Positions 13,204 to 13,538 of a stretch of 24,423 nt of DNA are shown one piece after another. Source of the DNA: a virus (lineage: Duplodnaviria > Heunggongvirae > Uroviricota > Caudoviricetes); the IMG/VR virus record IMGVR_UViG_2531839474_000007, positions 1 to 24,423 of that record, one strand, 5' to 3'. Position 1 is the first letter of the stretch. Every line of letters starts with the position of its first letter. Below the pieces are notes generated by a model. The model was not told the origin of the DNA. It did no database searches and saw only the letters and a program-made list of their open reading frames with translations. A program made the position numbers and the translations under genes.

Positions 13204-13291
13204 CAGAATATTTTCCTGAAAAATGACGTTGGCCAACGCGGGTGGATAACACGAAATCCTGAAAACTGGTAAAACCTAAGTGAATAAAAGT

Positions 13292-13332
13292 AAAAACCCC
13301 GTTTGTTGGCAGCAAGCGGGGTTTTGTGTTTT
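13292..13332 (+). terminator. terminator-like hairpin between R and Rz
   Basis: AAAACCCCG...CGGGGTTTT stem with a 15-nt loop, A-run upstream and TTTTGTGTTTT downstream; could act in either direction. Confidence 0.45.
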
Positions 13333-13423
13333 CTGACCTTGAGTAAGGCAAGGGAGAAATTATGGGTAGGGAGGTACTTTCCCTGTGAGGAAGTATAAAA
13401 GATTCTTTCTGAGGTTGTCCATT

Positions 13424-13537
13424 ATGAAAGGCATTGAAGTGGAGACGCCAGCCAGTCTGGATTTAACAAGAGCGGCAGCTTTTGCCATTCGTATTGTGGC
13501 CATTGCTGTTCTGGTCTGGGCAATCCGTTGGTGGTGA
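13424..13537 (+). CDS. possible 37-aa single-pass membrane peptide (MKGIEVETPASLDLTRAAAFAIRIVAIAVLVWAIRWW)
   Basis: ATG with GAGG 9 nt upstream; its stop TGA overlaps the Rz start (TGATATG); hydrophobic C-terminal helix; too short for the ORF track. Confidence 0.25.
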   Translation: MKGIEVETPASLDLTRAAAFAIRIVAIAVLVWAIRWW

Positions 13538-13538
13538 T

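Follow-up and report, generated by a model that had tools for sequence, protein, structure and literature searches.

A small membrane-peptide gene behind a terminator-like hairpin, a mobile unit between the endolysin and spanin genes of an Sp4-like lambdoid prophage

The window analysed here is the whole 24,423-nt stretch of the Caudoviricetes record IMGVR_UViG_2531839474_000007 (positions 1 to 24,423), and by its sequence it is a lambdoid prophage similar to Sp4 of Escherichia coli O157:H7 Sakai. Positions 11455-14949 are 99.5% identical to the Sp4 lysis segment, which in Sakai is inverted and flanked by IS629 copies (Sakai coordinate = 1198151 - window coordinate). The lysis cassette encodes a holin (S), a lysozyme (R) and the spanins Rz and Rz1. 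R ends at 13203 and the Rz start codon begins at 13539, leaving a gap of 335 nt (13204-13538), the same separation that an earlier note on this DNA had reported. The gap contains the 3' untranslated region (UTR) of R, a terminator-like hairpin, an upstream open reading frame (uORF) of eight codons and an open reading frame (ORF) for a small membrane peptide. The features are listed in Table 1.

Table 1. Features of the lysis region, in window coordinates. SD, Shine-Dalgarno sequence; SAR, signal-anchor-release; aa, amino acids.
Feature	Position	Strand	Description
S21-type class II holin (S)	11776-11982		Pfam and PHROG scans
ORF in the S-R gap	12238-12552	-	phrog_1853, no assigned function; Sakai ECs_1097
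R, SAR-type (phage 21-like) lysozyme	12670-13203	+	177 aa, N-terminal SAR-like segment; Pfam Phage_lysozyme 7.6e-24; phrog_7 endolysin; Sakai ECs_1096
Leader / R 3' UTR	13204-13291	+	conserved block GGATAACACGAAATCC at about 13244-13262, variable patch 13229-13243, A-rich run to the hairpin
Intrinsic-terminator-like hairpin	13292-13335		stem CCCCGTTTG/CAAGCGGGG, core 13297-13321; U-tract TTTTGTGTTTT at 13322-13332
uORF, 8 codons, MGREVLSL	13362-13388 (including stop)	+	SD GGGAG at 13352-13356; read from the sequence
Peptide gene, long form	13385-13537	+	50 aa, GTG start; SD GGGAGG at 13369-13374; phrog_4493
Candidate sigma70 promoter-like site, TGGACA-18-TATACT	13392-13421	-	inside the 5' end of the small ORF, pointing at the hairpin about 60 nt away
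Peptide gene, short form	13424-13537	+	37 aa, MKGIEVETPASLDLTRAAAFAIRIVAIAVLVWAIRWW, internal ATG; SD GAGG at 13411-13414, 9 nt upstream of the ATG
Rz i-spanin	13539-14006	+	155 aa; Pfam Phage_lysis 8.4e-49
Rz1 o-spanin	13759-13944	+	embedded in Rz; Pfam Rz1 1.7e-21
pchA, PerC-family regulator	14472-14786		directly after Rz; Sakai ECs_1091, transcriptional regulator PchA in the Sakai record

R-Rz junctions were compared over about 160 loci coding close R homologues, the check that the earlier note had suggested. R and Rz overlap by 1-4 nt in E. albertii, E. ruysiae, Mangrovibacter, Citrobacter and the loci of other species, as well as in K-12 Qin, in agreement with the earlier view that the gap is an insert relative to abutting genes. 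None of the named small proteins of Qin (YnfQ/R/S) lies at this position, where rrrQ and rzpQ overlap. In E. coli prophages whose R is at least 94% identical, the gap falls into discrete classes of 297-1197 nt: 297/298 nt (H-19B type), 335/336 nt (the window), 426, 438, 486-489 (PhiR12_1), 642 (569R3), about 993 (933W, with ant) and 1197 nt. The first ~90 nt after R are common to all of these classes, and a terminator-like hairpin comes next. Beyond the hairpin they hold one to four small ORFs with a single transmembrane (TM) segment, drawn from three families, with or without ant. Family A (phrog_4493/1115) comprises the window gene, referred to as A1, and a 60-aa form, A2; family B (MSDKLITLAKILCVIVGISF..., phrog_4906) and family C (FDFSKLIREIRVMAEKLSTWKF...IRWW, phrog_6632) have no assigned function. 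Families A and C look related, since K-x-G-I-E in the core and (I/V)RWW at the end are common to both.

A close parallel to this arrangement is the ant insertion of 933W, VT1-Sakai and Sp10, which occupies the same site and has the ~90-nt leader after R, a hairpin before the cargo and a family B ORF before Rz. It differs in that the cargo is a 189-aa KilAC/Ant protein and the hairpin, at the same place and distance after R, is non-homologous, with the sequence GGCACCGTAATG(A/G)TGCC followed by TTTGTCATTT. In 933W the family B gene (phrog_4906) between ant and Rz is an unannotated 44-aa single-TM ORF (locus L005, 2305-2439); in Sakai Sp10 the same gene is annotated as ECs_1966 (locus L168, 5625-5771).

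The insert of the window occurs with 100% identity in hundreds of E. coli genomes. Of 5426 complete E. coli genomes, 674 (12%) contain 80% or more of it, and 2037 contain its leader/hairpin part or more. The recurring unit consists of an A-tract, a hairpin, a U-tract, a spacer of 25-60 nt and the small ORF, and it occurs with the RWW ending in three unrelated lysis cassettes. The first of these contexts (i) is the S21/R21/Rz cassette of E. coli prophages, as in the window. The second (ii) is in Salmonella enterica, where the unit comes after the genes for an HP1-type holin and for another lysozyme, of 161 aa, and lies 10 nt upstream of Rz. In the third (iii), it follows two holins (phrog_198 and phrog_217) and either an endolysin that matches phrog_315, which we labelled GH108-like from reading its sequence by eye, or an M15-peptidase endolysin; an example is the inducible phage phiSTEC1575-Stx2k. 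In this context there is no Rz homologue, and the peptide gene instead adjoins, through a TGAnATG junction, a gene for a 60-aa lipoprotein with an LVGC lipobox and two further Cys residues (phrog_7528, no assigned function; locus L240, 1550-1732; L251, 1649-1831; L255, 2655-2837). The lipoprotein may be an outer-membrane lysis factor not yet characterised, and in these Rz-less phages it and the peptide may form part of a new route of outer-membrane disruption. In the window, the final codons of the peptide gene (RWW-stop) build the SD-like GGTGGTG of Rz, the junction reading TGGTGGTGAtATG. Since RWW is kept even where no Rz follows, this ending does not serve only as an SD for Rz.

Two further contexts lie outside lysis cassettes, although likewise within the late transcript. 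In context (iv) the unit follows tail-fibre genes, in Salmonella (L173) and in a metagenome contig (L258). At L258 the ordinary terminator of the upstream gene is followed at once by the unit's own hairpin, and at L173 the peptide gene lies between terminators on both sides. Context (v) comprises L256, after the major-capsid gene, and L257, both of which carry tandem arrays of hairpins and small TM ORFs (L256, 2400-3410; L257, 230-740). Together, these placements show that the hairpin and ORF form a mobile module which, relative to the overlapping R and Rz of other loci, has been inserted.

The earlier note had described a hairpin with A- and T-runs at 13292..13332, and the terminator scan agrees with it. 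The stem spans 13293-13325 and has 15 pairs, of which six are G-C, a 3-nt loop and, directly after it, GTGTTTTCTG; such a G+C-rich stem-loop with an immediate U-tract is the form of an intrinsic terminator. An A-tract lies 5' of the stem at 13286-13296, its last part (13292-13296) adjoining the core. Folded alone, positions 13286-13338 reached -21.4 kcal/mol compared to -10.8 +/- 2.4 kcal/mol for shuffled sequences (z = -4.43), and none of the 200 shuffles was as good. The symmetry of the A and T flanks makes the hairpin look bidirectional, so that the proposed termination in either direction holds as a matter of form. Across 16 hairpin variants, five G-C pairs were invariant and three inner pairs showed compensatory changes on both sides. 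The A-tract and U-tract persist even in copies with unrelated sequence on the left side. This pattern indicates that the hairpin is under structural selection. Because of the compensation, and because both tracts are kept in unrelated contexts, we take the hairpin to be a selected 5' boundary of the mobile module and not merely a terminator of R.

The short ORF with an SD sequence that the earlier note had seen is the 37-aa form of Table 1. It is already in databases, as ECs_1094 of Sakai and as WP_000675931.1 of PGAP, both named 'hypothetical protein', and the Sakai sequence is identical and at the same place in Sp4. PGAP annotates only the 37-aa form. The upstream GTG start of the long form, the uORF and the existing annotation had been missed. 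The stop codon TGA (13535-13537), which had been said to overlap the Rz start, does not do so and is separated by 1 nt from the Rz ATG at 13539-13541 (TGAtATG).

To compare substitutions, the A1 copy of the window was aligned with the copies of context (iii). Of 150 nt, 26 differ, with 6, 0 and 20 of the differences at first, second and third codon positions, respectively. The proportions of synonymous and non-synonymous differences were pS = 0.59 and pN = 0.05, giving a ratio of non-synonymous to synonymous rates (dN/dS) of 0.04, while pN exceeded pS in both of the other frames used as controls. The comparison of E. coli with Salmonella A2 gave a dN/dS of 0.19. These substitution patterns identify the ORF as a true protein-coding gene under strong purifying selection. 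They also bear on the case that the earlier note had set against its own proposals, namely that the insert is non-conserved junk. The junction is indeed highly mosaic, and the 438- and 642-nt gap classes contain truncated copies of the family A ORF, as a recombination scar might. The dN/dS of 0.04, the conserved start codons, the compensatory changes in the stem and the occurrence in several genera and contexts, together with the identity of the insert in hundreds of genomes, effectively refute this explanation.

The 50-aa form is a member of phrog_4493 (E = 1.4e-24, profile positions 1-54 of 56), a family without an assigned function, and it also matches phrog_1115 (E = 2.1e-11). The 37-aa form matches phrog_4493 with E = 5.5e-16, and the score rises from 59 to 87 bits once the 13 upstream residues are added. 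The family is narrow, as a profile search matched only 36 relatives, counted as 50%-identity representatives, among 1.84 billion proteins. All 26 distinct alleles begin with GTG or ATG at one shared position. Distant homologues have in common the N-terminal motif x-x-Y-(K/R)-(K/R)-x-F-R-(L/M)-R-(L/I)-S-M-K-x-G, including Y4 and the basic residues, and many of them keep the C-terminal (I/V)RWW. The gain in score, the shared start position and the conserved N-terminal pattern argue that the long form is under selection at the protein level.

The internal Met is invariant in every homologue, and in all nine contexts inspected GAGG, GGAGG or GAGA lies 6-9 nt upstream of the internal ATG. This motif is mostly supplied by an AGG Arg codon, which is rare in E. 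coli. At L173 the residues V-E-A replace L-R-L, yet GGAGG is kept. Retention of the motif despite changed residues argues for selection at the nucleotide level, as expected of an SD sequence. Both the 50-aa and the 37-aa products are therefore likely to be made.

The extension of the long form, MRKYKRFFLRLSI, has 13 residues, five of them basic (six in copies with Arg2). The N-terminus ahead of the TM segment carries a net charge of +4 in the long form and is slightly acidic in the short form. At the level of sequence, the gene thus resembles the dual-start holins lambda S107/S105 and phage 21 S71/S68, which also have two in-frame starts with SD sequences and a long form that adds N-terminal positive charge. 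In contrast to these holins, which have extensions of 2-3 residues, the extension here is 13 residues long, and the peptide has one TM domain, a C-terminal tail of three residues and no match to a holin family in Pfam or PHROG; the holin of the cassette is the S21-type gene. The long form is predicted to consist of a basic amphipathic N-terminus (residues 1-13), a hinge near Pro22, one TM helix at about residues 30-47 (nt 13472-13525) and the C-terminal RWW. The Kyte-Doolittle maximum in a 15-residue window was 2.60, at residues 30-44. AlphaFold2 predicted a helix at residues 3-16 with low confidence, a break near Pro22 and a helix at residues 22-49 with a predicted local distance difference test score of ~88. 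Hydropathy and structure prediction hence both bear out the single hydrophobic helix of the earlier note. With three residues (RWW) after the TM domain and no lipobox, the peptide does not have the features of a spanin; Rz and Rz1 are the next genes.

Upstream of the hairpin, the leader (13204-13291) has a column conservation of 0.92 compared to 0.88 at third codon positions of R, a slight excess, and its block GGATAACACGAAATCC reaches 0.98. The leader is recognisable in Salmonella after the different lysozyme, where the GGATAACACGAAATCC block survives, and it is absent from the context (iii) modules. The Salmonella copy of the block forms a 7-bp stem (GGCGGAT...ATCCGCC). Folding of the leader was no better than that of shuffled sequences (z = -1.1).

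These data, and searches for known RNAs, bear on the possibility that an RNA is the functional element, either a small RNA (sRNA) ending at the hairpin, whether derived from the 3' UTR or transcribed independently, or a hairpin that, by terminating transcription or stabilising the mRNA, sets the ratio of S and R to Rz, with the ORF secondary. The earlier note had raised both an sRNA ending at the hairpin and an attenuator setting the R:Rz ratio. Consistent with such a role, the hairpin carries a U-tract and compensatory changes have preserved it, an A-rich (ARN-like) stretch at 13262-13296 and the GGATAACACGAAATCC block lie upstream of it, and 933W-type phages have a non-homologous terminator-like hairpin at the same distance after R. 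Many prophage sRNAs are also encoded nearby, including PasA upstream of the holin and HnrS downstream of Rz. Rfam, however, gave nothing in the gap when the whole window was scanned at gathering score, and at E <= 10 over 11900-14500 the gap gave only sub-threshold matches driven by the terminator. The promoter scan found no sigma70-like site on the plus strand in 13204-13424. Among the Hfq-CRAC (crosslinking and analysis of cDNA) peaks of Sakai (Tree et al. 2014), none falls in the Sp4 gap, and there is no EcOnc entry in 1184728-1184947. None was noticed at the equivalent gaps of the other Sakai prophages, for which positions were approximate, the gap coordinates being exact for Sp4 and Sp10 and estimated for the rest. 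The leader lies outside the module in context (iii) and does not fold better than chance, the strong purifying selection on the ORF argues that the ORF is not secondary, and Q-modified polymerase, as is general for lambdoid phages, ignores terminators. A strong attenuator effect on the R:Rz ratio is unlikely for this last reason. The sRNA ending at the hairpin finds no support from an Rfam family, a plus-strand promoter, an Hfq-CRAC peak or conservation of the leader elsewhere, and we regard an RNA-centred explanation as a whole as very unlikely.

Known sRNAs of this region were considered individually. The PasA/PasC/PasD group, described as 'adjacent to holin/lysozyme', was rejected, as the preprint of Zhu, Shabalina and Storz places PasA between the sialate esterase and holin genes and thus outside the R-Rz gap. 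HnrS (EcOnc10-12) lies immediately after Rz in Sp10, and nothing resembling it was found in the window. A 15-nt mazF-complementary seed, as reconstructed from the mazF sequence, was absent.

Between the hairpin and the GTG codon, an interval of ~55 nt, two more stem-loops are predicted. The second pairs AGGGA (13368-13372) with TCCCT (13380-13384) and covers most of the SD sequence of the GTG at 13385. The uORF lies in the same interval, and its TGA stop codon (13386-13388) overlaps, within the sequence GTGA, with the start codon of the main ORF. Salmonella L170 has the uORF too, with two amino-acid changes, and in PhiR12_1 a 25-nt deletion joins the SD and ATG of the uORF straight to the main ORF. 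The juxtaposition of uORF, peptide gene and Rz suggests a chain of ORFs linked by translational coupling.

Taken together, our preferred reading, which we hold tentatively, is that the insert is a mobile late-operon cassette encoding a tail-anchored inner-membrane peptide that modulates, without being essential, the membrane steps of lysis. The cassette would comprise the R 3' UTR, the Rho-independent hairpin, the ~55-nt structured leader with the coupled uORF, and the peptide gene ending 1 nt before Rz. In lambdoid phages, transcription of the late operon is carried out by polymerase that Q has modified to resist terminators. Only such polymerase, reading through from pR', would transcribe the peptide gene, which would then remain off in the lysogen and be switched on late, together with S, R and Rz; silence in the lysogen is suggested by the terminator in front of the gene and the lack of a plus-strand promoter after it. 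The peptide would insert with its N-terminus in the cytoplasm and only RWW on the periplasmic side. It might tune the triggering time of the holin or pinholin, or the hand-over from endolysin to spanin, which is the weakest and most speculative step, and the 50-aa and 37-aa isoforms might oppose each other in the manner of dual-start holins. The connection with lysis, which is speculative, comes from synteny in three unrelated cassettes, in each of which the gene lies between the endolysin gene and the last lysis gene. Genes for non-essential membrane proteins, LysA of phage P2 and the 'releasin' gp25 of phage Mu, reportedly lie between or next to endolysin and spanin genes. As judged from their general descriptions, these resemble the present gene in position and presumed late expression and differ in that LysA has four TM domains and gp25 ~100 aa, whereas the peptide has 37 or 50 aa and one TM domain.

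Several observations weigh against this proposal. Scans of the peptide against Pfam, NCBIfam and PADLOC gave no match, and hence no holin, antiholin, spanin or defence homology. Distant members follow capsid (L256) or tail-fibre genes (L173 and L258), which are typical moron slots, so that the association with lysis does not hold for the whole family. That a terminator directly precedes the ORF in every context is something the proposal explains only as insulation. Most sequenced Shiga toxin (Stx) phages lack the gene, and the A1 form was found in only two GenBank phages. A tblastn search with the A1 peptide was weakened because the low-complexity filter hides the TM portion of the query. The absence of the A1 form from most sequenced Stx phages indicates that the gene is dispensable. 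The supplements of an enterohaemorrhagic E. coli Ribo-seq study (Hücker 2017), searched by tag, peptide and sequence strings, gave no match, and the same searches of Cappable-seq (EDL933) supplements gave none either. ECs1094 is not mentioned in the literature found, and searches for 'between R and Rz' likewise returned nothing relevant; a survey of Stx-phage lysis cassettes does not discuss these R-Rz ORFs (PMC8136144). As to the membrane peptide acting with the spanins that the earlier note had suggested, a real gene directly upstream of Rz or of the lipoprotein gene in three types of cassette supports the general idea, whereas the members after capsid and tail-fibre genes speak against a specific partnership with spanins.

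The placement of distant members raises the possibility that the gene is a moron for lysogenic conversion or superinfection exclusion, in which case an inner-membrane protein would be expressed from the prophage and its location in the lysis cassette would be incidental. HK97 gp15 is said to be a small inner-membrane superinfection-exclusion protein of this moron type and, by description, is likewise a small single-TM prophage protein. Members of family A occupy classical moron slots in the late operon (after tail-fibre genes at L173 and L258 and after a capsid gene at L256), with the L173 copy bracketed by terminators. Insertions, ant among them, are known to concentrate at the R-Rz junction, and the gene is rare in isolated phages and very frequent in resident prophages, being found in 12% of complete E. 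coli genomes. Morons, however, come with a promoter of their own and are followed by a terminator. Here the terminator precedes the gene, a 3' terminator is seen only in the distant L173, L256 and L257, and no plus-strand promoter-like site lies between terminator and ORF in the scan of the window or, by eye, in the other contexts. A terminator placed immediately 5' of the gene also speaks against its being expressed in the lysogen. The stop codon lies a single nucleotide ahead of Rz (or of the lipoprotein gene), in the manner of coupled genes in an operon, and PADLOC gave no match. We consider a moron of this kind unlikely.

A minus-strand promoter-like site, TGGACA-18-TATACT, lies within the 5' end of the ORF. 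It is the only match of at least 10/12 to the sigma70 consensus in the whole window, and 4.7% of shuffles of the gap yielded a match of this quality. A transcript from this site would be a hypothetical antisense RNA of ~100 nt (from about 13385 to 13283) covering the GTG, its SD sequence and the uORF and leaving the start of the short form outside; its predicted fold has z = -3.8. Positions 13388-13430 are almost invariant at the nucleotide level between copies in which the other synonymous sites are saturated (dS of ~1.2 in the rest of the ORF). This near-invariance may reflect two sites of translation initiation, one at the 3' flank of the GTG start and the other formed by the SD and ATG of the short form, a view that the conservation of GAGG supports. 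Alternatively, and with a rather low probability, it may reflect the minus-strand promoter. The site is conserved in the enterobacterial copies. Equivalents were seen by eye in A2 (TAGTCA-18-TATACT) and L258 (TGGTCA-18-TATACT), while L256 and L257 do not keep it with a workable spacing, and its -10 element falls on conserved Lys-Tyr codons.

A type I toxin-antitoxin-like module would account for several of these features. The peptide would be toxic to the membrane, and the constitutive cis-antisense RNA of ~100 nt would silence its leaky translation in the lysogen and be outcompeted after induction. The unique promoter match is aimed at the hairpin, whose A-tract makes a good U-tract on the minus strand and is kept at the left edge of the module despite unrelated upstream sequence. 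The hairpin is always 5' of the ORF, at 25-55 nt in distant copies and ~60 nt in the window, and the second terminator just upstream of it at L258 indicates that the hairpin belongs to the ORF unit. With fewer than 60 aa and one TM domain, the product fits a small hydrophobic toxin, and the promoter region is near-invariant at synonymous sites. The coupling of the uORF to a hydrophobic ORF is reminiscent of mok/hok, the tandem arrays of L256 and L257 resemble ldr/sib/zor repeats, and the folding score of the predicted antisense RNA points the same way. The module thus shares with hok/mok/sok, ldr/rdl, shoB/ohsC and zor/orz a peptide of fewer than 60 aa, a coupled leader ORF, an antisense promoter-like site, a terminator usable on the minus strand and tandem relatives. 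It differs from them in having no Rfam match, a candidate antisense promoter that is not universal, no toxin promoter and a position in a late operon adjoining Rz.

Further points reduce the appeal of a toxin-antitoxin pair. The -10 element coincides with the conserved K-Y codons, the two adjacent initiation regions explain the invariance equally well, and a promoter with workable spacing is missing in L256 and L257. No Rfam antitoxin reached threshold; the best match, ohsC, scored 20.2 bits against a gathering score of 50, with only the terminator aligned. No toxin promoter was found, and the gene adjoins Rz within the operon. No Hfq-CRAC peak is listed at the gap, although type I antitoxins often do not bind Hfq. 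A type I-like system is in our estimation quite unlikely. We attach similarly little probability to the bolder idea of a new class of mobile micro-cassette, in which the 5' terminator and an antisense RNA ending at the same hairpin would silence a dual-start peptide that acts as a type I toxin-like lysis timer, released on induction.

Already known are the annotated gene, its function unassigned, and, more broadly, the accessory small membrane proteins of phage late operons. New are the corrected start with the evidence for dual starts, the uORF, the finding that hairpin and ORF recur as one module across contexts, and the putative promoter on the antisense strand. Lysis timing sets burst size and, in Stx phages, toxin release, and the R-Rz junction of Stx-type prophages is a hot spot that collects one to four genes for tiny membrane proteins of three related families, the family B one being unannotated in the 933W reference record. 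If the antisense RNA were real, the unit would be a new type I-like module for phage late operons; if the peptide were irrelevant to lysis, it would be an ordinary accessory hypothetical gene behind a terminator. Being under strong selection, with two conserved starts and a terminator of its own in every context, the peptide gene offers phage-lysis laboratories a concrete and cheap target.

Elsewhere in the lysis region, S and R are 687 bp apart (11983-12669), and this gap houses the minus-strand ORF at 12238-12552. Since related phages have DUF1327/DUF1823 genes at the S-R junction, it is a second site of mosaic insertion. Downstream of Rz, the interval before pchA has a terminator-like hairpin on the minus strand at 14237-14221; the pchA product activates the locus of enterocyte effacement. 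The window contains two IS629/IS1203 (IS3-family) copies inverted relative to each other, at ~1339-2648 (minus strand) and ~10025-11334 (plus strand), with ALIL frameshift pseudoknots at 2197-2313 and 10360-10476. The inverted orientation of the S-R-Rz-pchA segment in Sakai Sp4 compared to the window is consistent with IS-mediated inversion. Other RNA features of the window are a hok/sok type I toxin-antitoxin RNA at 3365-3539 (sok, 114 bits, Rfam), a tRNA cluster ileZ-argN-argO at 6835-7081 and the sRNA STnc100 at 7855-8027, a family that the Storz preprint relates to PasD. The Hfq-CRAC site EcOnc35 (Tree et al. 2014; Sakai 1186583-1186656, plus strand) corresponds to 11495-11568 on the minus strand of the window, directly upstream of the holin gene in the region described for PasA-type sRNAs.

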